In this document: one piece after another, positions 1,535 through 23,997 of the stretch | Position numbering within the stretch: the first letter of the stretch is position 1 | How the letters are laid out: each line of letters begins with the position of its first letter | The notes under the pieces: generated by a model | Databases searched by the model: none | What the model was told of the DNA's origin: nothing | The model's input: the letters and a program-made list of their open reading frames with translations, nothing else | Translations under genes and position numbers: made by a program | Virus record (IMG/VR): IMGVR_UViG_3300025138_000016 | Reading direction: 5' to 3' (one strand) | DNA length: 64,000 bases | Source of the DNA: a virus

Positions 1535-2438
1535 TCTTCGCTGCTTTATCCTTCGCGCGTTTATTTTTAGCACGAGTCGCTGCAGCTTTTTTAGCTCTAA
1601 CGGCATTCTTTTCCTTCTTAAGAACAGCTGCTTCTTCTTCAGCTACTCTTGCAAGTCTAGCTTCTCTTCTCTTATCAGCTTCTTGACGTGCTTTAGTTGG
1701 TTTAGGCTTTTCGGCTTCGTGTAATTTTTTAAGCTCTTTCTTGCTAGGTCCTTTTGACTCTACTAATGTAGGAGTACTAGGTGCAGTCTCGACTTCATAT
1801 AACTTAGTAAAGTCTATCTTAGATTCAGCAATAGCTAATTTTACTAATCTATCTGTATCAGTAACTTCATCATGTGATACGATATACTTGGCATTTGTAT
1901 CTTCTTGTATATGCTCAATAGCTTTACCAATATCAATAGGGAAGTCTAAATTATATGCAACAGTTTCAATATACTTAGCACCATACAATTGTAATAGCTC
2001 ATAGGACAAGAAGAAATCAGCTTCTGGAAATGACTCAAGATCTAATGTTATCTTCTTTCTTAATCTAGTTTGCTGATGCTGTAAGATATTACCATCTCTA
2101 CCTATTTGTAGTACTGAGTATTCAACACCTCTTGCATCTAATGCTTTAAACACTTGATCATACTTAGGGACCCTGTGTCTGCCCTTAGCTACATAGGGAT
2201 TACTTATACTAGTAACGTTATACTGCTTATAGTCATATGTCTTAAATAGCGCAGGCTTATTCCAGCATTCAGCGAAAGGCTCTCTATGATGCCCTTGCCA
2301 ATACTTGCCTTTCATATCCCATCCGTTAACAGATGTATGTGAGTTAAAGATCTTAGACCATAAATGGTTACCGGCCCCTTGGGGGCCAGTAAGTATAATT
2401 AATCTAGGCGATTCTATTTGATAGTTTTGAGCTGCCAT
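1515..2438 (-). CDS. P-loop/sulfotransferase-like protein with Lys/Ala-rich C-terminal tail
   Basis: IILTGPQGAGNHL resembles a PAPS-binding or P-loop; the last ~90 aa are low-complexity and basic. Confidence 0.55.
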   Translation of the reverse strand: MAAQNYQIESPRLIILTGPQGAGNHLWSKIFNSHTSVNGWDMKGKYWQGHHREPFAECWNKPALFKTYDYKQYNVTSISNPYVAKGRHRVPKYDQVFKALDARGVEYSVLQIGRDGNILQHQQTRLRKKITLDLESFPEADFFLSYELLQLYGAKYIETVAYNLDFPIDIGKAIEHIQEDTNAKYIVSHDEVTDTDRLVKLAIAESKIDFTKLYEVETAPSTPTLVESKGPSKKELKKLHEAEKPKPTKARQEADKRREARLARVAEEEAAVLKKEKNAVRAKKAAATRAKNKRAKDKAAKNARKTK

Positions 2439-3825
2439 ATGCTAATGCCGGTGTTGCGAATACTGCGGTTAATGTCGCGTAGAATGTAAAGCCTGTGAAG
2501 TATAAACTCATGGCTCCTATAAAACATGCTACAAATGAATAGAAGAGCGCATTGCCTTCTAGTAAATCAGGTTTAAGTACAATCATCATACTTGGTATGA
2601 ATAACGTAGCACCCATGATACTAAAGAAGATAAACAAGTTACCTAATGTTATACCTGGTATATTAGCTACACATACACCAACGATTGCTAATACTATCAT
2701 AGCTCTTCTTGACCAGGAGATTGCATTCTCTGGTTTAGCTAAGTCATTACCAACTAGGTTAGTTAATGAAGCCATTTGACTATCTAAGATAGCTATCAGT
2801 CCAGCGAATACCATAAAGGTAAAGAACGCTGCTGCCATAGGTCCAAGTAATGAGGCAATAGTAATAATGTTAGTATTAAAGATCTTATCACCAGGAATAT
2901 CATATCCTAGTCCTGCAGCTGTAAATCCTAGTATACCCATTCCAATAGGAATAACAATAAACAAGAATGATGCTAATGTAAATGCAGGTATAATAGATGC
3001 AGGTTTAATCGCGAATGCTCTTTGATAGAAAGAATTATCTCTCCAAGTACCACCCATGTGACCTAAAAAGGCAGCGATTCCAAAGCTAGTAAAAACACCC
3101 CAAGCGAAAGAAGTACCAACGATAGAGCCACCAAGACCTTTAGTACCCACCAGGCCGGCTTTAACAACATCAAGACCACCAGCAGCACTAACAGCCATGG
3201 GAACGAGAACCAGAACACCAATCCAAACAACAGATATTTTGATAATCTCGGTAACGACAGTAGCTTTGAGTCCATTTCTGAATGCATATAATAGGGCGAC
3301 CATGCTCATTAATATTGTACTTAAAGTATAGTCCATTCCAGTTAGTAGTGCAACTGTAGTACCACCAGCAATAAGGTTAATAGCAAAGGCACATACAGCT
3401 AAGACTATCATCTCTACTCTATAGAACCAATAAGCATTACCGCTAAATCTATTCTTAACATACTCAGTAAAGGTAAAGCCATCAGGCTCTTGATCTCTAA
3501 TCTTTTTAGCAAAGAATCCAAAGAATGTAAGAGTAATAAAGTTACCTAAGCAGAACCAGAATAGTCCTACTAAACCGTTAACATAAGCTTGTTGAGCTGA
3601 TATGAATAGACCTGGAGCCCATAACCATGCAGCTGAGATAGACATAGCACCTTGCCATGTATTAAGTTCTCTACGAGCTAATAAGAAGCTCTCTTTACTA
3701 TCAGTATAACCTGAAGCGAATTTAGTTGTTAGAGTATAAGCTATTAAAGCATATGTACCTAACAGTGCGAAACCTACCCAAGGATCAAGGATAGGGAATA
3801 TTAAATGACCGTGCTCACTAAACAT
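2404..3825 (-). CDS. Sodium:solute symporter (SSS family; PutP/DUR3-like)
   Basis: 473 aa with ~13 hydrophobic segments; ESFLLARR, SISAAWLW, GLKATVVTE and FYQRAFA match SSS motifs. Confidence 0.85.
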   Translation of the reverse strand: MFSEHGHLIFPILDPWVGFALLGTYALIAYTLTTKFASGYTDSKESFLLARRELNTWQGAMSISAAWLWAPGLFISAQQAYVNGLVGLFWFCLGNFITLTFFGFFAKKIRDQEPDGFTFTEYVKNRFSGNAYWFYRVEMIVLAVCAFAINLIAGGTTVALLTGMDYTLSTILMSMVALLYAFRNGLKATVVTEIIKISVVWIGVLVLVPMAVSAAGGLDVVKAGLVGTKGLGGSIVGTSFAWGVFTSFGIAAFLGHMGGTWRDNSFYQRAFAIKPASIIPAFTLASFLFIVIPIGMGILGFTAAGLGYDIPGDKIFNTNIITIASLLGPMAAAFFTFMVFAGLIAILDSQMASLTNLVGNDLAKPENAISWSRRAMIVLAIVGVCVANIPGITLGNLFIFFSIMGATLFIPSMMIVLKPDLLEGNALFYSFVACFIGAMSLYFTGFTFYATLTAVFATPALAYGSSKLSNRIA

Positions 3826-4461: not shown

Positions 4462-5092
4462 AATATTTCCTTATTAGTTCATAATGGGTTTCATCAATTT
4501 CCACATTACAAAAGTTACTTATTAACGTTTTCGTTTCCTCAAACGTACTATTATATAGGCACTCATATGTTACAGTTGTAACGTTAAATGCCTGCTTTGC
4601 ATAGGTATATAAACCTTCTCGCTCTGAGTGATCAGACATCTTATCATATAGATAAGCATCCCAATCTTTCTCAGTCATATCACTAGTTACACCAACTAAG
4701 GTACCTAGCTTTGCTTTAGCGAGATGCTTACATCTCCCATCCTCGTCTTCGATAACTAATACATTATCGAAATTCCTGTATTGCATCTCCGCTAATATAT
4801 TTAGCGACCATTGATGCAATGTTATTCTGTCATAGTGTTTGAATATATTATCTTTCTCGATAAAACTATTCTTACCAGCACTATCTTCAACTAAAGCTGA
4901 ATAGTCTGGTCTATCTGTTAGGTGAACTTGTTTAAAGAACTTAGCTAGTCCTTGATGTCCACATCCATATTCAGTAGCATGGTAGTGGTTAGCCTCATTA
5001 AGTTCAAAAGGCTTATTATCTATTATAGACGATATCAGGCTGAGAATAAACTCTCCGCCGCATCCTGGTAAATATTTAACTGCTAATTTCAT
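4409..5092 (-). CDS. Hypothetical protein, weakly sulfotransferase-fold-like
   Basis: N-terminal YLPGCGGEF loop and C-terminal VTYECL, reminiscent of the sulfotransferase xYEDL motif. Confidence 0.5.
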   Translation of the reverse strand: MKLAVKYLPGCGGEFILSLISSIIDNKPFELNEANHYHATEYGCGHQGLAKFFKQVHLTDRPDYSALVEDSAGKNSFIEKDNIFKHYDRITLHQWSLNILAEMQYRNFDNVLVIEDEDGRCKHLAKAKLGTLVGVTSDMTEKDWDAYLYDKMSDHSEREGLYTYAKQAFNVTTVTYECLYNSTFEETKTLISNFCNVEIDETHYELIRKYYEKNQSIIDSYLSNKSN

Positions 5093-5519
5093 CTATAATT
5101 CTCAATGCTTCTTGTAGATTATCTGATTGTCCAATACGTACATTAATGATACCGTTATAGTATTCATCTGATGATAGTACATTCCTATCAAATTGCTCAC
5201 GTGCCTCAAGATAGCCAGCGCTACCTTTACTAGGGCAATAATATAGTATCTCTCTTTTAAATTTATCTTCACCAAATTCAGCTACATCGTTCTTAAGATG
5301 CTCTGATGATCCCCAATAGGTACGCCAATCACTTTCTTTAGTTGATTTTCGTTTTCTTTTTTTACCTTTGAGAGGGGGTCTAGTTACTTTAAATTTAGCA
5401 AGCTTTTTTCCAACATACTTTTTATCGTTAACTGTATTAGTGATAAGATATACAAATGCTTCACAATCTTCAGGAAGCTCTTCTACATCCTTACTATTGT
5501 AGGTCCATGCTGTCATCAT
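5076..5519 (-). CDS. Short GIY-YIG endonuclease
   Basis: FVYLITN-x5-KYVGKK, YWGSS, a conserved E and YYNG; catalytic domain only. Confidence 0.85.
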   Translation of the reverse strand: MMTAWTYNSKDVEELPEDCEAFVYLITNTVNDKKYVGKKLAKFKVTRPPLKGKKRKRKSTKESDWRTYWGSSEHLKNDVAEFGEDKFKREILYYCPSKGSAGYLEAREQFDRNVLSSDEYYNGIINVRIGQSDNLQEALRIIDEISS

Positions 5520-5655
5520 TAAATTCCTCACCATCATCATACTCTAGCTCATCACCACATGCAGGGCAATGAGTTATATTAAATATAGGATCATGAAAGG
5601 TTACCTTACCTTCGAAGTCACACACCATACAAAGTATCTTCTTACCATTACTCAT
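5494..5655 (-). CDS. Small zinc-ribbon protein (53 aa)
   Basis: Not in the ORF track. MSNGKKILCMVCDFEGKVTFHDPIFNITHCPACGDELEYDD...; CxxC...CPxCG plus an acidic tail; ATGA overlap with the nrdB stop. Confidence 0.8.
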   Translation of the reverse strand: MSNGKKILCMVCDFEGKVTFHDPIFNITHCPACGDELEYDDGEEFNDDSMDLQ

Positions 5656-6728
5656 AGTTTAAATCCTGTAAATGTATCTGCTGATACATCTTTTTTCACT
5701 CCACCTGTTATATAAGAGGAGATTTCTGTTTCTTGGGGTGCAACTTGAACACTACTACCAACGATCCATTTCTGCGTCCATGGTAGTGGATTAGTTCCAC
5801 CAGTAAAATTATGTTCAATGCCTAATGCTGAAGCTCTCTTAGCTGCAATCCATTCGACATAACTCTTTAATACATTAGCATTTAAGCCTATCATAGAGCC
5901 GTCTTTAAATAAGTAATCGGCCCATTCTTTCTCTTGCTCAACTACCTCAGTAAATATATTTAGTACATCTTCTTTACACTCTTCTTGAATCTTAAGGAAG
6001 TCTTTATCGTCTTTAGGTAGTAGTTTAATTAGATGCATAGTAGAAGCAAGATGAACGTTCTCATCTCTTGCTATAAACTTAATAATCTTAGCATTGCCTT
6101 CCATCTTTTTAAGTTCAGCGAATGCCCAGCTACATGCAAATGATACATAGAATCTAACTCCCTCTAAAGCATTAACAGCATTCAATGCTAACCATAGAGC
6201 TTTCTTATGTCCATATGATCCATAGCCAGCTGATATCTGATTACGATTAACTAGATCATCATAGTAAGTAGATATTGAATTAGCACATTCAACTATCTCT
6301 TTTATATCTAGCATAGTATCAAATACTTCAGAAGGCTGAGTGTATATATTTCTAATGATATGAGTATAAGATCTTGAATGAATAGTCTCACTAAAGCTCC
6401 ATGTCTCTATCCAAGTCTCTAATTCTGGTAATGATGATATAGGAAGGAAAGCTAGGTTAGGAGCTCTTCCTTGAATACTATCTAATAGTATCTGTCTTTT
6501 AAGATTAGAAGTAAATATATGCTTCTCTGAATCAGTAAGATCTTTAAAGTCTTTTGAATCCTTTAAGATATCTACTTCCTCTGGTCGCCAGAAGAATCCT
6601 AACTGCTTATCAGTAAGCTTATCTATTTGCGGGTATTTAATTTCATCATAACGAGCAATATCCACTCCTCCATCGAAGAATAGATTTCTAGATTTTGAAC
6701 TTTTTTTATTCACTTTAAATACTGACAT
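5652..6728 (-). CDS. nrdB: Ribonucleotide reductase class Ia beta subunit
   Basis: FFWRPEE, DSIQ, ETIHSRSY (radical Tyr), LEGVRFYVSF, RDENVH and APQETEISSY motifs. Confidence 0.97.
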   Translation of the reverse strand: MSVFKVNKKSSKSRNLFFDGGVDIARYDEIKYPQIDKLTDKQLGFFWRPEEVDILKDSKDFKDLTDSEKHIFTSNLKRQILLDSIQGRAPNLAFLPISSLPELETWIETWSFSETIHSRSYTHIIRNIYTQPSEVFDTMLDIKEIVECANSISTYYDDLVNRNQISAGYGSYGHKKALWLALNAVNALEGVRFYVSFACSWAFAELKKMEGNAKIIKFIARDENVHLASTMHLIKLLPKDDKDFLKIQEECKEDVLNIFTEVVEQEKEWADYLFKDGSMIGLNANVLKSYVEWIAAKRASALGIEHNFTGGTNPLPWTQKWIVGSSVQVAPQETEISSYITGGVKKDVSADTFTGFKL

Positions 6729-7641
6729 GTGGGTTAATGTTATCTCCAAATCGAATTGATTCAATAAATCGTTTATGGCTTCCGCCTGGTCCTGGCATAT
6801 AGCCCCAGTTACATAGTTGACGGCCGCCGCCTCTATAATGCTCTTGTTCTGTGTCGTCGAAGTAACATTTCCAACTAAAGAAATAGCCCTTATTAGTGTA
6901 GTCCTGATTAGATTTAATCTCTTCTAAACTTTTAGGTACATATCTCATGAGATCCATATTATCTAATCTCGTTCTACCTAAATTAAGCCATTCTGCACTT
7001 TCATGATCACCTTCTAAGCAAGGCATCGTATTATGAATAACGTCAATACTTTCTATACGCTTACTATGTAGCTCATGGAAGTCTGCTACGACGTCAGGGT
7101 AGTTACTTTTAAAATACTTAACAGCTTTTTTAGATGCTGGCTTCGTTGAATCGTTAACTCTATACCAATCTATTAGCTTAGGATACAACTTATCTAGGAG
7201 ACCAAATCTTAATAGGTTCATGCTTATTTTAGTAATATATTCATCATGTACGTTATGTCCAAATATCTCATGTACAACTATATCAGCATCTTGTATAAAC
7301 TCTAATGAATCATTTATAGCATTAACATGATGAACTTCAACTCTACCATCATCGATATATTCTTGGAGATTAGTTTTAACAACTTGAGTATAAGCTTTAT
7401 TATAATCTATACAATAAACTTTTTTAGCTCCATACTGTAAGGCTATGTAAGCCATTACACCATTACCAGAGCCAAGATCAACTATTACTTTATCTTTTGA
7501 TACTCTCTTTAAGAAATCGTGATAAGCTTTCATCTTCTCAGGATCAAGACAGCATCTGAACTCCCAGTTCTTAGCCGTATTCATAAGATCAGTAATATCT
7601 CTGATTCTATCTTTATCGCTTAGCTCTATTTTAACTTTCAT
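6715..7641 (-). CDS. SAM-dependent methyltransferase, PRMT-like
   Basis: KDKVIVDLGSGNG, GAKKVYCID, and DIVVHEIFGHNVHDE (E-x8-E double-E loop). Confidence 0.8.
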   Translation of the reverse strand: MKVKIELSDKDRIRDITDLMNTAKNWEFRCCLDPEKMKAYHDFLKRVSKDKVIVDLGSGNGVMAYIALQYGAKKVYCIDYNKAYTQVVKTNLQEYIDDGRVEVHHVNAINDSLEFIQDADIVVHEIFGHNVHDEYITKISMNLLRFGLLDKLYPKLIDWYRVNDSTKPASKKAVKYFKSNYPDVVADFHELHSKRIESIDVIHNTMPCLEGDHESAEWLNLGRTRLDNMDLMRYVPKSLEEIKSNQDYTNKGYFFSWKCYFDDTEQEHYRGGGRQLCNWGYMPGPGGSHKRFIESIRFGDNINPHVSI

Positions 7642-7792
7642 CTTTATCTATTTTATTACCATAATAATCATGTGTACCATCTCTATAAGCTTTCTTTCTA
7701 GCTGATAGTATAAGCGTTGATACCCAGATACCATACCCCATAAAGGTTAGTATAATTATACCTGCTATTATATTTAATATTTCTAAGATCAT
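7631..7792 (-). CDS. Small membrane protein (53 aa)
   Basis: Not in the ORF track. MILEILNIIAGIIILTFMGYGIWVSTLILSARKKAYRDGTHDYYGNKIDKDES; ATGA overlap with the nrdA stop. Confidence 0.7.
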   Translation of the reverse strand: MILEILNIIAGIIILTFMGYGIWVSTLILSARKKAYRDGTHDYYGNKIDKDES

Positions 7793-10029
7793 ATCTTACA
7801 GCTCTCGCAATCGTCTTCTTCGTCAGTAGCGCCATCATTCGTATTTAAATAATACAATTGTTTACCGCCATACTTATAAAACATTAATAGGTCTTGTAAC
7901 ATAGTACTTAATGGTATCTTATCATCCTCATAGTTCTTAGGATTATATGATGTATTAACACTTATACCTTGATCGATATATTTCTGTAGCACTGCACATA
8001 TTTTAAGATATCCTTCGGGCGATGGCAAGTCCCAAAGCAACTCATATTTATTTCTCATATGAAACATGCTAGGAACTACTTGCTTAAGTATACCGTCTTT
8101 TGATTGTTTAACAGATACTAACGCTCTAGGAGGTTCTATACCATTAGTAGCATTACTGATCTGTGATGATGTCTCAGATGGCATAAGAGCCATAAGAGTA
8201 CTATTTCTTATACCAGTTAATTTTAATTGAGCCTTAAGATCATCCCATGGCATTTTATAATTAGGTTTAACTAATTCATCTACGTCTTTTTTATATGTAT
8301 CAATAGGTAATATACCTTGACAATAAAGAGACTCTTCATGTAGATTTATCATGCCTTTTTCTTCAGCTAAATCAGCTGATGCTTTAATAAGATGATATGA
8401 CCAGGCTTCAGTCCATTCATCTATCATTTCTAAATTAGGATTAGAATAGTTTGAATTATTTTTAGCTAACCAATAAGCAAAGTTAACAATACCTATACCT
8501 AAAGGCCTTCTATTCTTAGTACTATTCTCAGCTGCTTTTACAGGATACATTTGATAAGATAGCAGCTCATCAAGAGCTCTTACTAATAGGTTAGCTGGAC
8601 GTTTAAAGTCTTTAGGAGACTTCATATTACCCCAGTTAATAGCACCTAATGTACATAGAGATATCTCTCCATTCTCATCGTTTATATCGTTAAGTGGTTT
8701 AGTTGGTAAGTCAATCTCACAGCAGAGATTACTCATTCTGATTGGTGCTTTGTCTGTTACGAAAGGACTATGATCATTAGCATGATCAACATTCATTAAA
8801 TATATACGTCCAGTATCTTTCCTTTCTTGCATAAAGGATGAGAATATTTCGATCGCAGGTACCTTTCTCTTCCTGATTGATGTCTTCCGTTCGGCAGCTT
8901 CGTAGAGCTCACGGAATCTTTCGATGTCCGAGAAGAAAGGTTCGTATAGTTCTGGTACGTCCGATGGACTGAAAAGGGTAATATCGTCACCATTTAGGAG
9001 ACGCTCATAAAACACCTTATTAAACTGTACGCCATAGTCTAAGTGTCTGATTCTATTATCTTCCGTACCCTTATTATTTTTAAGTACAAGAAGATCTTCA
9101 ACCTCAGCATGCCATATAGGATAGTAAAGAGTAGCAGCGCCACCCCGTACCCCACCTTGGCTACAAGACCTAACAGCGGATTGGAAGTGTTTAAAGAAAG
9201 GAATAGTGCCCGTGTGAGTAGCGTGGCCACCGTTAATAGGACTTCCGAGCGCTCTAATGCGTCCTGCACCGATTCCGATGCCTGCTCTTTTTGAAACATA
9301 TCTTACTATCGCCGCCGATGTTGCTGAAATTGAGTCAAGTGAGTCATCTGTCTCTATAAGGACACATGAACTAAATTGGCGTACTGATGTTCTGACGCCA
9401 GCCATCACAGGTGTTGGTAAAGAGATATCGAAACGACTTAAAGCGTCATAGAAATCTTTCACCATCATCATTCTTTTATCTGTATATTTATGAAAAAGTG
9501 TAGCGGCAATTAACATGAAAGCTATCTGAGGTGTTTCATATATCTTCTTATCGAATCTATTCTTAACTAGATACTTGCCTCTCATTTGCTCCATAGCAGC
9601 ATAGGTCATAGTCTCATCTCTACCATGATCTATCCATGAGTCCATAGTATCAAACTCATCTTCTGTATACCAGTTTAGCAACTCCTCTTCATAAAAGCCT
9701 TTCTTAATTATTCTTTTAACATGCTTATATAAACGAGGAGGCTCAAACTTATTAAATACTTCCTTTCTAAGGTCGTAACAAATAAGACGTCCAGCTACGA
9801 ATTGATAATTAGGAGATTCTTCTGATATAAGATCAGCAGCTGCTTTAATAACCGTTTCTTGAATCTCCTTAGTCGTCATTTTATCGTAAAACTGGATATG
9901 AGACTTAAGCTCTACTTCCGACACAGAAACACCTGCAAGGTTATCGCAGGCGTACTCTACTACTTTATGTAACTTCTCGATATCGAGACCCTCACGGGTC
10001 CCATCTCGTTTCACGATTGAAAAACTCAT
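7789..10029 (-). CDS. nrdA: Ribonucleotide reductase class Ia alpha subunit
   Basis: N-terminal ATP-cone (VKRDG), QFSSCVL, SQGGVRGG, SNLCCEI, LMPSETSSQ and C-terminal CESC. Confidence 0.98.
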   Translation of the reverse strand: MSFSIVKRDGTREGLDIEKLHKVVEYACDNLAGVSVSEVELKSHIQFYDKMTTKEIQETVIKAAADLISEESPNYQFVAGRLICYDLRKEVFNKFEPPRLYKHVKRIIKKGFYEEELLNWYTEDEFDTMDSWIDHGRDETMTYAAMEQMRGKYLVKNRFDKKIYETPQIAFMLIAATLFHKYTDKRMMMVKDFYDALSRFDISLPTPVMAGVRTSVRQFSSCVLIETDDSLDSISATSAAIVRYVSKRAGIGIGAGRIRALGSPINGGHATHTGTIPFFKHFQSAVRSCSQGGVRGGAATLYYPIWHAEVEDLLVLKNNKGTEDNRIRHLDYGVQFNKVFYERLLNGDDITLFSPSDVPELYEPFFSDIERFRELYEAAERKTSIRKRKVPAIEIFSSFMQERKDTGRIYLMNVDHANDHSPFVTDKAPIRMSNLCCEIDLPTKPLNDINDENGEISLCTLGAINWGNMKSPKDFKRPANLLVRALDELLSYQMYPVKAAENSTKNRRPLGIGIVNFAYWLAKNNSNYSNPNLEMIDEWTEAWSYHLIKASADLAEEKGMINLHEESLYCQGILPIDTYKKDVDELVKPNYKMPWDDLKAQLKLTGIRNSTLMALMPSETSSQISNATNGIEPPRALVSVKQSKDGILKQVVPSMFHMRNKYELLWDLPSPEGYLKICAVLQKYIDQGISVNTSYNPKNYEDDKIPLSTMLQDLLMFYKYGGKQLYYLNTNDGATDEEDDCESCKI

Positions 10030-13015: not shown

Positions 13016-13270
13016 CTACTCGCCTATATTCTGAGTAGTGATTTTAACTTTAGGTGGTCTACCTCTTCGCTTGGGCGAGGAGTTCTTTGAAGGTGAGGAG
13101 GAGCTTGCGGCCGCCTTTTTCTTTGCTGCCGGCTTTGTATTTTTGCGCGGCTTTTTTGCTGACTTTGATGTCGTCTTCACCGTTGTATCCGCCGCCTGCG
13201 ATGGCTCCGGAGCCAACCACGTTAACATCTTCGTTAACCATGTTTTCAATTGGTTCATTATTTTCTCCAT
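13016..13270 (-). CDS. Basic low-complexity protein with AT-hook-like RRGRPPK
   Basis: Amphipathic N-terminal helix, K/A/S-rich body; stop abuts the next ATG. Confidence 0.5.
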   Translation of the reverse strand: MEKIMNQLKTWLTKMLTWLAPEPSQAADTTVKTTSKSAKKPRKNTKPAAKKKAAASSSSPSKNSSPKRRGRPPKVKITTQNIGE

Positions 13271-14987: not shown

Positions 14988-16088
14988 TTATTTATCTAAG
15001 CTAGCTACTAGGTGTTTAAGTAACTGCTCTTTAGCTAATGACTTGGTTAAACCGCCATTATTTTCTTTTAATTTACCTGACTTCTCATCTTTACGACGAG
15101 AATCATAGTTTGTATCATGAAGCCTGTAATCACTTGCACCATGGTATCCTTTTCTTCTCAAAGCTCTATTTGCTGTTGACATACCTTTAGATGCTTTATC
15201 TTGCACCTTACGTTGTTGCTTTTGTAAGCCTCTAGCATTTTTCTCTGCAGCTTTAGATGTAGAATTCTGTGCGTCACTACCGTAACTATCAGCTTTATAG
15301 CTGCTATCGAATTCTTGCTTCTTCCTCTTAGTATGAGCAGATTTGATAGTATCTGTATCTAGCTCATGGAGTTTAGCTTGCATAATTTTATTAATTGTTT
15401 CTTGAACCTTCTTAGGTTCAGGCTTCTTAGGATTAGCTGCTGAATGGTCATCAGCTGCTTTATTAAGACCGGCGTGAGGTTTTAAACCACTCTTACCTGT
15501 TTCTTTATCTTTAGAATAATTGTGGAAGAATAAATGACTCTTAATAGGCTTCTTATGCTCATCTTTAGGATATATTCCTTTCTTGATTAAGTCATGCCTT
15601 TGCTTAATACCCATTTGGCCTTCTTCTGATACAGCAGGAACTTTACTTCTTTGCTTATCTAATGGATCTGATCTAAGCATTTTACCGCCGTCACCATCTT
15701 GTCCTGCATCACCTTTCTTTAATTTACCTGATCTAGTAAAATGATGTCCGTCAGGAGCTTCTTTAGTTTCTTTCTTAGGACCGTATCCTAAGTCAGATGT
15801 TACTTTATTAAACTTACTAAAGCCAGATGTTTTTTTCTTATCACCTGATGGTGGGGCTTTTTTGAATGTCTTATCTTCTTGCTTTTTAAGCATATCATCT
15901 TTAAGTCTGCCTTCAAGAATATATCCCTGAGGCTCAAAAGACTCTTCAGTAGTTGAAATACTACCGTGTCCTCTTTTTCTTAGGATTTGTATCTTCTTCT
16001 GAGCATCTTGCATATCAGCTGCATAGCGATATGTCTTCCTGCCTGAAGGAGTTACTGCACCTATTTTTATTCTCTCAATAAGTTCCAT
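14988..16088 (-). CDS. Lys-rich modular protein, putative internal head protein
   Basis: Basic modules separated by (L/I/V)-x-E sites; LHELDTDTIKS module. Confidence 0.6.
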   Translation of the reverse strand: MELIERIKIGAVTPSGRKTYRYAADMQDAQKKIQILRKRGHGSISTTEESFEPQGYILEGRLKDDMLKKQEDKTFKKAPPSGDKKKTSGFSKFNKVTSDLGYGPKKETKEAPDGHHFTRSGKLKKGDAGQDGDGGKMLRSDPLDKQRSKVPAVSEEGQMGIKQRHDLIKKGIYPKDEHKKPIKSHLFFHNYSKDKETGKSGLKPHAGLNKAADDHSAANPKKPEPKKVQETINKIMQAKLHELDTDTIKSAHTKRKKQEFDSSYKADSYGSDAQNSTSKAAEKNARGLQKQQRKVQDKASKGMSTANRALRRKGYHGASDYRLHDTNYDSRRKDEKSGKLKENNGGLTKSLAKEQLLKHLVASLDK

Positions 16089-21135: not shown

Positions 21136-23997
21136 TTAGTGCTTTGTTATCGGGTGATTGTCGCCGCCATACTTATCTGATCTTTCACCATCTGATTTGT
21201 AAGCGTTTTTCTTAGTAGGTTGACGTGTAGGAGTACCGTCAGTAGTTTTTTTAGTTTTAGACTTTTTATAAACCCATTCTGGATAACGTCTATCACCTTC
21301 TGATTTCTTTTCTTTAGAAGCTTGATCGTCGTCTTTCTTATAGAGGTCTTGTTTCTGTCTTAGTCTATAAACTTTAGGCTTACTTGATTTGAAGCTTAAG
21401 TGTTGTCTAGTTTTTTGAATACCTTTTCTTGGAGTTTCAGCATCAAATACAGCTTCTTTAAAAGTAGATATATTTGGTTTATGAATGCCGTCTTTATATG
21501 GAGTACCATCAACAGCTACTTCATACTTGCCGCCTTGACCTGGTGTACCCATTTCGTATCTTTTTCTTAATGCATCAGTACCCATAAGACCAGCTGTCTC
21601 ACTCATTTCTTTTTTACGTGACTTAACTAGCTTTGCTATCTCAGCTTTAGACATATTACCGCCTTTAACTTCAATATAGTCTTTAACATCTCCGCCTTCT
21701 TTAATAGACATGTTTGGGTTAGGTCTTACGTTAGGATTAAGAGGTGCTTTTTTCTTATCTTTCATACCTTTTAATCTTTTGCTTCTATCGTCTTCTTGAT
21801 CTCTTTTAGCTTGCTGAATAATATGCTCTGGCTCGCCTGAATAAGACTCTTTCTCAAATTTTGGATTTTGCTTGCCTTTATATTTTGGATTACCTGGTAT
21901 TGGTTTAACTGCATACTTCTTAGAAGCGTTGTTAATATCTGCTGCAGATACATGAGATGGTCCTTTGACTCTCATTCTACCTGTAATCTCATCTTTCTTT
22001 AATTCTTCTGAAACTTTGGCTTTTTGGTCACGCTTTGCATTCAGTTTATCAGTAGCTTGATTCATACTCTTAACACGCTTCTTAGAGGCTTGTAATTTTG
22101 AATCAGCTCTATTGTAATTGCCACCATCATATGCTCGCTGAGCATCTCTATGTTTGGTGCTAGCATCTTTTAATGCTTTATCTCTATATGAGTTTAATGT
22201 ATCACTAGATAGCTCATCTAACTGATCTTGAAGATCAGGAGAGGAGACTTTTAATTCTTCGTTATGATGCATGTTTAGTTTCCAATGGGCTAGTTTCTTA
22301 GCTCCTGGAGAACCTGTAGAACGAATCTTTTTAAGTTCTGCTTTTGTTGCATCTTTTGGAACACCATGTCTATTTAATTCAAATAGAGCGTCAGCGTCAG
22401 TTTTACCTTTAGCAATAGCTTCATTTACTCTTTTAAAGCCTGCTTGCTCAGCTGAGCCTTCACCGTCATAACTAATATGACCGTCTGTATAGTATTCAAT
22501 AATTGATTTAATTGATAGGTTAGACTTCTCAGCTTTCTCTATTAAAGAGTTTAAAGCTTTATCACTTAACTGATATGACTCATGAGTGATTATTTCACCG
22601 TGCTCTAATTGATCGCCATGAGATTGAGCAGTTGAGTTATCTTTCTTAGCTTTTTTAGCTGCTAATTCTGCTTTTTTCTTTTTAGCATAAGCCATGTATT
22701 CTTTGTAACCTTGCTGACCATGGACTATTTTATCACCAGTATAGCCTCCAGAAGGTCTTCCATATGCAGGTCCACTTAAACCATCATTATTATTCTTTAT
22801 TACTGACTCTGCTGCATCTTTAAAATCTTGCTTAGTTGGTGCACCTTTAGAACCAGGCTTACGCATTGGTCTGCCTTCTTTTCTTTTCTTATGGATATTA
22901 TGCCAAAGACCAGCACCTTCAGATAGCATTGTTTCAAAATTTGAATTAATATTCTCTGCAGCTTCTCTAAATGATTTAAATCTTGAAAATTCTTTTCTTC
23001 TTGTTTGTGGAAGTAATCTTGATGATAGCTTAGAGATAATGTTCTTACGAGCTCTTACTCTGCGATCAATACTTGACTTCTCTTGAGCTGATAATTTAGA
23101 GTATGATTTTCCTCTACCACCAGCCAAACGATTTCTCATGATTCTAATTGAAGCACGAGCCGTTCTTTTCTTTAACCTAGGATTAAGAGCTATACGTCTT
23201 TGTACTCTCTTTCTTGCGATCTTCAGCCTGGATTTATATTTCCTGGCTGCTACGGCCTTTTTTCTTCGGCCCGCCACGGACAATACGCCCGCTTCATCTA
23301 GGTAAGTTTCGAATATTTTGTTTAGTTCTTCTGACAAGTTCATTCCCTCTCTTATCATATTTATAATAACTTCAGCTGAGGCATGAAGTTGCGAAGGAAG
23401 ACCTTCTCTAAATTCTGTTAAATTGCCTTCTACAGCCAGCTCACGCATCTTAGATGCTGACATACCTTCTATGCCATCTGAGTCTGGATCACGTAGACCA
23501 GCATTGACTACTTGCATACTTTCGTAATGAAAGTCTTTACCATTATAGGTAGATGTTATTCGTTCTAGGTCTTTAATTCTATCTTCGCCTACAACAACAA
23601 TAACGTTTTTAAAATTCTTATTAACTTCGATAAGCATATCGAACATATTCTTAGCATTCGATTCAGCTACAAATTCTTCACCAAAGGCTTTCTTAACTAG
23701 CGATAGTTTTTCTTCGTAAGCGAGTGGATTCTTTTTAGGATCGTAAGAGTGAGACAGGAAGATTAACGGCTGCGCCCTTTCATCTAGGGATATGGAGAGC
23801 ATTTTTTCAACTAAGGCTAAATGTCCCACGGTGGGTGGATTCATTCGCCCGAAGGTTACGACTGCGGTATCGGTAATTGCTTCAGAAAAATTCATGCCAG
23901 ACTTTTTTTCACGTGTATGTGCAGGGTTGAGAACAATTTCGTCTTTTGGCTTGCCTGATGCAGTAGTTGAAACTTTACTTTTTAATGCTTTTTTCAT
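21136..23997 (-). CDS. HxGH-type nucleotidyltransferase (cytidylyltransferase/NadD-like) fused to a long basic modular tail
   Basis: TFGRMNPPTVGH, KKNPL, VVGEDR and MSASKMRE in the first ~220 aa, then ~730 aa of basic modules. Confidence 0.85.
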   Translation of the reverse strand: MKKALKSKVSTTASGKPKDEIVLNPAHTREKKSGMNFSEAITDTAVVTFGRMNPPTVGHLALVEKMLSISLDERAQPLIFLSHSYDPKKNPLAYEEKLSLVKKAFGEEFVAESNAKNMFDMLIEVNKNFKNVIVVVGEDRIKDLERITSTYNGKDFHYESMQVVNAGLRDPDSDGIEGMSASKMRELAVEGNLTEFREGLPSQLHASAEVIINMIREGMNLSEELNKIFETYLDEAGVLSVAGRRKKAVAARKYKSRLKIARKRVQRRIALNPRLKKRTARASIRIMRNRLAGGRGKSYSKLSAQEKSSIDRRVRARKNIISKLSSRLLPQTRRKEFSRFKSFREAAENINSNFETMLSEGAGLWHNIHKKRKEGRPMRKPGSKGAPTKQDFKDAAESVIKNNNDGLSGPAYGRPSGGYTGDKIVHGQQGYKEYMAYAKKKKAELAAKKAKKDNSTAQSHGDQLEHGEIITHESYQLSDKALNSLIEKAEKSNLSIKSIIEYYTDGHISYDGEGSAEQAGFKRVNEAIAKGKTDADALFELNRHGVPKDATKAELKKIRSTGSPGAKKLAHWKLNMHHNEELKVSSPDLQDQLDELSSDTLNSYRDKALKDASTKHRDAQRAYDGGNYNRADSKLQASKKRVKSMNQATDKLNAKRDQKAKVSEELKKDEITGRMRVKGPSHVSAADINNASKKYAVKPIPGNPKYKGKQNPKFEKESYSGEPEHIIQQAKRDQEDDRSKRLKGMKDKKKAPLNPNVRPNPNMSIKEGGDVKDYIEVKGGNMSKAEIAKLVKSRKKEMSETAGLMGTDALRKRYEMGTPGQGGKYEVAVDGTPYKDGIHKPNISTFKEAVFDAETPRKGIQKTRQHLSFKSSKPKVYRLRQKQDLYKKDDDQASKEKKSEGDRRYPEWVYKKSKTKKTTDGTPTRQPTKKNAYKSDGERSDKYGGDNHPITKH

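Follow-up and report, generated by a model that had tools for sequence, protein, structure and literature searches.

Genes at the nrdA-nrdB junction

The stretch of DNA analyzed here (IMG/VR virus record IMGVR_UViG_3300025138_000016, 64,000 nucleotides, in the following referred to as the window) carries a gene for a methyltransferase (MT) between nrdA and nrdB, which encode the large and the small subunit of a ribonucleotide reductase. As outlined below, the encoded protein, which depends on S-adenosylmethionine (SAM), is very probably a true homologue of the protein arginine methyltransferases (PRMTs) with a double-E active site. A preliminary description, made from the sequence alone, had placed a PRMT-like gene at this position. 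The location was confirmed by an uninterrupted open reading frame (ORF) of 308 amino acids together with Pfam matches on both flanking genes. The ORFs of the locus are the following:

7789..10029, (-): nrdA, large subunit of a class Ia ribonucleotide reductase, directly upstream of MT, assigned via Pfam
7631..7792, (-): ORF of 53 amino acids with one hydrophobic helix, between nrdA and MT, no Pfam match
6715..7641, (-): MT, predicted SAM-dependent methyltransferase of the PRMT superfamily, 308 amino acids, open ORF with ATG start
5652..6728, (-): nrdB, small subunit of the ribonucleotide reductase, downstream of MT, Pfam Ribonuc_red_sm (E 8.8e-50)

NrdA of the window exhibits the Pfam domains ATP-cone, Ribonuc_red_lgN and Ribonuc_red_lgC (E 2.5e-124) and shares 57-59% identity with annotated phage NrdA proteins. 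According to a reading of the DNA, nrdB is likely to start with the ATG at 6728, where conserved NrdB begins, and the MT stop codon (6715-6717) and the nrdB start overlap by 14 nucleotides. The small ORF upstream of MT overlaps the nrdA stop by 4 nucleotides and the MT start by 11 nucleotides. In more distant relatives nrdA overlaps MT directly and no ORF of 53 amino acids is called between them. The GC content of the MT gene (~33-35%) equals that of the neighbouring genes and consequently does not indicate a recent acquisition. A scan for promoters and terminators gave no more than the shuffled expectation, and no tRNA genes were found in the window.

Judged by its sequence, the element is an uncultured marine T4-like phage. 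This assignment follows from the marine-metagenome origin of the MT homologues (see below), from the DNA polymerase of the window, which is 50-51% identical to Synechococcus myophage polymerases, and from T4-type neighbours, comprising a T4-type primase, an SNase-like endonuclease and a SegE-like GIY-YIG protein.

Conserved motifs of the methyltransferase

All motifs quoted in the preliminary description (residues 32-40, 49-61, 71-79, 124-134 and 277-279) are present and were checked in the DNA. They belong to the following elements, whose strands and helices are those of a predicted structure obtained with AlphaFold2 (AF2):

7522..7566, (-): motif of the N-terminal helix, WEFRCCLDPEKMKAY at residues 26-40, equivalent to the 'H..ML.D..R...Y' helix of PRMTs
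7459..7497, (-): motif I, SAM-binding glycine loop, residues 49-61 (KDKVIVDLGSGNG), D55, G57 and G61 invariant
7405..7431, (-): post-I strand, residues 71-79 (GAKKVYCID), model strand 74-79 ending in D79
7240..7272, (-): double-E loop, HEIFGHNVHDE at residues 124-134, immediately behind strand beta4 (121-124)
6805..6822, (-): THW-like loop, residues 274-279 (RQLCNW), CNW being 277-279
6718..7221, (-): residues 141-308, a diverged C-terminal domain built of five beta strands plus a helical insert (183-203)

The sequence LDPEKMKAY at residues 32-40 lies within two helices of the AF2 model (26-32 and 34-47). Therein D33 is invariant, K36 is exchanged for Arg in distant members, and A39 and Y40 are nearly invariant. 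D33, K36 and Y40 pair with the Asp, Arg and Tyr of the PRMT helix in the hhalign alignment described below, the Arg being the residue that binds the SAM carboxylate. Residues 52-61 (VIVDLGSGNG) satisfy the motif I pattern xxDxGxGxG, and position 79, at which class I methyltransferases bind the ribose, is Asp or Glu in 18 of 18 aligned members. The model furthermore displays the alternating strand-helix pattern of a class I Rossmann domain. In the double-E loop E125 and E134 are separated by eight residues, as was verified in the DNA, and throughout the wider family H124, E125, G128 and E134 do not vary. The THW-like loop contains an invariant W279 as well as the nearly invariant N278 and R274. 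Within the C-terminal domain the helical insert consists of helices 183-195 and 199-203, located between barrel strands of the model, at a position corresponding to the dimerisation arm of PRMT1.

Across members with identities down to 23-30%, the residues D33, D55, G57, G61, H124, E125, G128, E134, W257 and W279 are invariant. Since the motifs fall on columns homologous to the PRMTs and do not vary across a family with identities as low as ~25-30%, they represent more than a chance resemblance.

Sequence relationship to PRMTs

Already the single MT sequence matched TbPRMT7, PRMT3, PRMT8 and CARM1 among the sequences of the PDB, whereby the TbPRMT7 alignment ranged from the N-terminal helix through EIFG in the double-E loop. 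A profile (A1) built from 14 homologues of the MT family, which was also used for hhalign and for the AF2 model, retrieved yeast Hmt1 first (E 1.6e-12), followed by PRMT1, PRMT8, PRMT3 and CARM1. These alignments reach profile position 187, past the double-E loop, and place 'HEIFGH..DE' on 'SEWMGY...YE' of Hmt1/PRMT1. The double-E loop with its E-x8-E spacing, as proposed in the preliminary description, was thereby recovered, with E125 and E134 positioned on the glutamates of Hmt1/PRMT1.

When 1.84 billion representatives were searched exhaustively with a profile, 3839 matches were obtained. Among the 118 full-length top matches from outside the family, 105 exhibit Glu-x8-Glu after beta4 and 77 a late [HN]W. 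For the comparison via hhalign, seven proteins were taken whose alignments extend deep into the C-terminal half; Pfam PRMT_C is present in six of them. The MT family aligned with them over 230 columns (probability 99.8%, E 7.7e-28). The alignment pairs RCCLDPEKMKAY with RMLEDQVRMNAY in the N-terminal helix, motif I with motif I, and HEIFGHNVHDE with HEAIGAFVFDE. NW is paired with HW of THW, in agreement with the previously noted likeness of CNW to the THW loop, although Asn replaces His. Even after the Rossmann domain was cut off and the C-terminal halves were compared alone, the NW/THW strand-loop still aligned (P about 6e-5 to 1e-4; W.AYLDD..F.N.PR..NNW versus F..FD..FST.P...THW).

Predicted structure

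Built on A1, the AF2 model reached a predicted local distance difference test (pLDDT) score of 90.2 and a predicted template modelling (pTM) score of 0.90. Searching the PDB with Foldseek, 50 of the 50 matches listed were PRMT entries, with TbPRMT7 (5eku) as the best (E 5.5e-10). An independent search with VIA-align over 48,161 chains gave PRMTs for all of the 14 best matches (Z 11.2-14.8), for which 196-218 residues within model residues 15-300 were aligned. PRMT9, PRMT7, PRMT3, PRMT10, PRMT2, PRMT6, CARM1 and PRMT5 are found among the best fold matches. Methyltransferases consisting of the Rossmann domain only rank below the PRMTs, and PrmA was aligned over 136 residues with Z 10.1-10.6. The PRMT alignments of the whole model extend to residues 294-300, which corresponds to ~70 residues more than for the Rossmann-only enzymes. 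The structural comparison suggested in the preliminary description thus returned PRMTs as the best matches, with PrmA and small-molecule methyltransferases at lower scores.

As to the type I features named in the preliminary description, profiles and fold support the kinship to PRMTs, whereas the YFxxY motif of type I enzymes is absent, and while the sequence favours Hmt1/PRMT1, the structure places PRMT7 and PRMT9 level with the type I enzymes. E125 and E134 would line a guanidinium pocket according to the alignments, which is an assignment by alignment and not by geometry.

Weighing of the assignment and other acceptors

Several findings weigh against MT being a protein arginine methyltransferase. 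Pfam detects only generic methyltransferase models and PrmA, the latter being the best match (E 1.7e-7) over profile positions 159-237 of 296 only, and FtsJ, MTS and Cons_hypoth95 pass the cut-offs as well. The putative RNA methyltransferase PH1948 rivals the PRMT scores (E 4.7e-12), in this case over motifs I-III in the Rossmann half only. The His of THW is replaced by Asn (xNW loop), and the type I YFxxY motif was not found ahead of the MT helix, where the sequence reads WEFRCC. At E <= 1, Pfam PRMT_C (PF22528) matched 0 of 18 family members. When residues 141-308 were folded separately (pLDDT 80) and the resulting model was used for fold searches of the C-terminal domain alone, the best Z was 3.6 for unrelated beta-sandwiches, with PRMT7 and PRMT9 at 2.8-3.0 within the noise. 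Foldseek gave no match for this domain at E <= 0.001, PRMT3 entries recurring at E ~1.3-2. Furthermore, no Arg/Gly-rich candidate substrate was seen among the proteins of the window.

With neither a Pfam PRMT_C match nor an isolated fold match above noise, the idea of a canonical PRMT barrel was dropped for the C-terminal domain. This domain retains the NW-bearing strand-loop and is otherwise reduced and strongly diverged.

Part of these findings would also suit a class I methyltransferase acting on another kind of acceptor, such as a lysine or N-terminal amine as for PrmA, or a base of rRNA, tRNA or DNA. The PRMT motifs would then be inherited scaffolding instead of arginine-binding elements. 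Besides the Pfam labels, the PH1948 match, the Asn in place of the THW His and the C-terminal domain, which alone has no PRMT match, this explanation draws on weak PHROGs matches to DNA and tRNA methyltransferases and on the nucleotide-metabolism genes surrounding MT. Nevertheless, we consider it improbable. The PrmA match is partial, and true PRMT_C-bearing proteins match the PrmA model likewise. Because these proteins match the same generic models, the generic Pfam and PHROGs labels do not discriminate. Structurally, the values for PrmA stated above have to be compared with Z 14-15 for the PRMTs, and both glutamates are invariant over deep divergence. Finally, no (D/N)PP(Y/F)-type motif of nucleic-acid amino-methyltransferases was seen on reading the MT sequence.

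Distribution and inheritance

Close homologues of MT (39-99% identity) originate from marine metagenomes only, several of them from contigs of ~158-161 kb, and in the databases searched the family was confined to contigs of uncultured marine phages. IMG/VR contains 16 loci. In the ESM Atlas about nine look-alike viral clusters with 50-160 members each were observed, and the structure neighbours there include bacterial clusters with PRMT_C in 47-70% of the members. BFVD holds two phage look-alikes, which are without name or generically named. A tblastn search of 50,697 deposited phage genomes with MT as query revealed no relative at E <= 1e-3, and nothing was found in the same genomes at this threshold with a canonical PRMT-like relative and two 'ML.D..RN..Y' relatives as queries. 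Looser limits merely gave short pieces of generic methyltransferase domains. Likewise, no relative was found among 185,579 prokaryote species, each represented by one genome.

The gene order nrdA-MT-nrdB was present in 23 of 23 loci with sufficient flanking sequence. Three more distant relatives lie on contigs of 2-3 kb and are uninformative for gene context. In relatives with called genes, the MT stop and the nrdB start overlap by 14 or 19 nucleotides. The mean pairwise identity amounts to 78% for both NrdA and NrdB and to 39% for MT, and in pairs whose NrdA proteins are 91-94% identical the MT proteins are only 63-72% identical. The divergences of MT and nrdA are correlated (Mantel r 0.83, p 0.0005). 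MT has thus resided in the operon for a long time, is passed on vertically and evolves several times faster than the flanking genes, without variation at its catalytic positions. As MT is kept within nrdA-MT-nrdB, overlaps nrdB and is inherited together with nrdA, we conclude that the gene is maintained and functional.

The tight nrdA-MT-nrdB linkage and the fast overall sequence change might also be expected for a catalytically inactive PRMT-like subunit, which in the manner of a prozyme only binds a partner, for example the reductase. Such an arrangement has a precedent in the TbPRMT1 enzyme-prozyme complex (6dnz), in which an inactive PRMT paralogue was solved. For MT, however, we regard it as highly improbable. 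Motif I, the acidic residue of the post-I strand, the two glutamates and the NW loop do not vary, whereas the rest of the protein diverges to 25-40% identity, as would be expected of an active enzyme.

A second group of T4-like contigs in IMG/VR (L024-L028) contains an MT relative of 258-261 amino acids (e.g. 3471..4256 in L025) with HEIFGH....SE and NQW. This relative is situated between clamp-loader-like and PhoH-like genes. As it lies away from nrd, the linkage to the reductase is not universal. Moreover, the nrdA-nrdB junction of T4-type phages is a known insertion site (mobE in T4), by which a non-functional explanation of the MT location would be available.

Several neighbouring genes were recorded in addition. 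Directly downstream of nrdB follows a protein of 53 amino acids with two CxxC pairs (5494..5655, (-)), and the SegE-like GIY-YIG protein, also downstream of nrdB, is encoded at 5076..5540 (-) (PHROG 447/7363; PF19835 in relatives). Both are kept in relatives. At 2404..3825 (-) a sodium:solute symporter family (SSF) protein of 473 amino acids is encoded (Pfam SSF, E 1e-18; PHROG 20720), the gene of which occupies the same position in relatives L004-L007. A membrane transporter represents an unusual cargo for a T4-like phage. Relatives L001-L003 (carrying P0016) possess a cytochrome c gene (PF00034) at 7964..8413 after nrdB, with a glutaredoxin and a glycosyltransferase beyond it, while the window is without such genes at that position.

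Proposed activity and substrates

On balance we lean towards MT methylating arginine in proteins, the acceptor presumably being a peptidyl arginine of a host or phage protein. In the proposed mechanism MT would be transcribed and translated together with the phage reductase genes as part of the replication and nucleotide-metabolism module. SAM would be held in the Rossmann domain by motif I (D55, G57, G61), by D79 and by K36 of the N-terminal helix. E125 and E134 in the loop after beta4 would grip the guanidinium group of the arginine, and the pair D33 / N278-W279 might close the pocket in analogy to Asp / His-Trp (THW) in PRMT1. The methyl group would then be transferred to an omega nitrogen of the arginine.

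Type I PRMTs contain the YFxxY motif and Met residues which direct asymmetric dimethylation, and a Met follows the second Glu of the double-E loop. In MT the residue after E134 is Tyr, and Cys30 would correspond to Met48 of PRMT1 when the hhalign alignment is mapped onto PRMT1 numbering. With YFxxY missing, Cys30 and the Tyr after E134, the product may be monomethylarginine (MMA), asymmetric dimethylarginine (ADMA) or symmetric dimethylarginine (SDMA), and the structural comparison favours none of them, since the Z scores of PRMT7/9 and the type I enzymes are tied.

As possible substrates, the preliminary description had named, besides host proteins, the very basic head proteins encoded nearby. 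The basic proteins of the window are Lys-rich (14-19% Lys, ~5-7% Arg) and nothing marks them as head proteins. The product of 13016..13270 contains 19% Lys and 5% Arg, that of 14988..16088 contains 17% Lys and that of 21136..23997 contains 14% Lys. Given this Lys-rich composition and the cytidylyltransferase domain present in one of these proteins, the proposal was rejected as unsupported. The protein with this domain (21136..23997, (-), 953 amino acids, pI 9.8) combines an N-terminal cytidylyltransferase-like domain (PHROG 3041, E 1.7e-52) with a long C-terminal part.

The lack of an RG-rich candidate protein in the window would be in line with a PRMT-type pocket acting on a free guanidino compound, i.e. 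free L-arginine or another guanidino metabolite, instead of a protein. The reduced, fast-diverging C-terminal domain points in the same direction, as it matches no PRMT barrel and the corresponding part aids protein-substrate binding in PRMTs. Such chemistry exists in SznE/StzE of streptozotocin biosynthesis, which methylates the guanidino group of free arginine (PMC11705231), and further genes of metabolic cargo, among them that of the SSF transporter, lie close by in the phage. On the other hand, nrdA and nrdB are the only conserved neighbours, companion biosynthetic genes being absent, and the nearest solved relatives by both sequence and fold are all protein-modifying PRMTs. A free guanidino substrate is therefore unlikely in our view.

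Returning to protein arginine as the acceptor, MT might modify one or several arginines of NrdA, NrdB or a partner of these, or it might be the marine T4-like, arginine-methylating counterpart of Alt/ModA/ModB of T4, which are host-takeover enzymes ADP-ribosylating arginine. We regard these more specific roles as doubtful. A modifier of NrdA, NrdB or a partner would explain why MT is translationally coupled within the nrdA-nrdB operon in all informative relatives although its sequence changes sixfold faster. Since the non-catalytic surface changes fast and the reductase is highly conserved, a variable partner, e.g. host proteins, would however fit better than the reductase.

Significance

PRMTs have mainly been studied in eukaryotes and are regarded as hallmark eukaryotic regulators, and to our knowledge their bacterial homologues are almost unstudied. 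Our literature searches found no phage-encoded PRMT or other arginine methyltransferase. For bacteria, the entries of a review are limited to predicted PRMTs in Legionella and a single arginine methyltransferase from mycobacteria (PMC10117894). According to a proteomics study from 2026, there had been no earlier report of methylated phage proteins, and in infected marine bacteria methyl-Lys as well as methyl-Arg occur on proteins of both phage and host (PMC13288928). A keyword look-up of the same study found no enzyme named as responsible for these marks (PMC13288928).

As a family of ~300 amino acids, which is specific to phages and conserved in abundant uncultured marine T4-like phages, the MT proteins are candidate writers of such methyl marks. 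If MT indeed modifies the reductase or takes part in host takeover, it would constitute the first phage-encoded system of protein arginine methylation. Furthermore, it would represent a minimal PRMT scaffold, with which the essential parts of the C-terminal domain could be found.

Comparison with known systems

Taken together, MT appears to be a phage-specific variant of the PRMTs, being well supported as a homologue by sequence and model and having a predicted function. Among solved structures, the eukaryotic type I PRMTs (Hmt1, PRMT1, PRMT3, PRMT8, CARM1) are its best sequence matches. They present the same order of elements, beginning with the D..R/K...Y helix and motif I, followed by the acidic residue of the post-I strand, the E-x8-E spacing behind beta4 and a late xxW, and align structurally with Z 13-14 over ~210 residues. 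Unlike these enzymes, MT is phage-encoded, comprises 308 amino acids without extra N-terminal domains, contains xNW for THW, is devoid of YFxxY and possesses a reduced C-terminal domain, which Pfam does not recognise as PRMT_C. The fold searches are headed by PRMT7 (Trypanosoma brucei, C. elegans, mouse) and PRMT9 (VIA Z 14.2-14.8), yet their identity to MT is just 13-17% and their Z scores are tied with those of the type I enzymes.

The prokaryotic PRMT_C-bearing proteins, which are uncharacterised and often automatically named '50S ribosomal protein L11 methyltransferase', match the MT family in the profile comparison (probability 99.8% over 230 columns) and have HE....G....E in common with it, and some of them exhibit TNW or NNW for THW, similar to NW of the MT family. 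They are cellular and possess a PRMT_C barrel detectable by Pfam, whereas the phage MT family is without it. PrmA, which methylates Lys and the N-terminus of ribosomal protein L11, shares the class I Rossmann half with MT, but a full-length match including its N-terminal L11-binding domain was not obtained. PrmA is not known to contain a double-E or THW loop. SznE/StzE finally is comparable by its reaction, the chemistry proposed for MT being alike in that a guanidino nitrogen is methylated (PMC11705231). In contrast to the role proposed for MT, it acts on a free amino acid and is encoded within a biosynthetic cluster.

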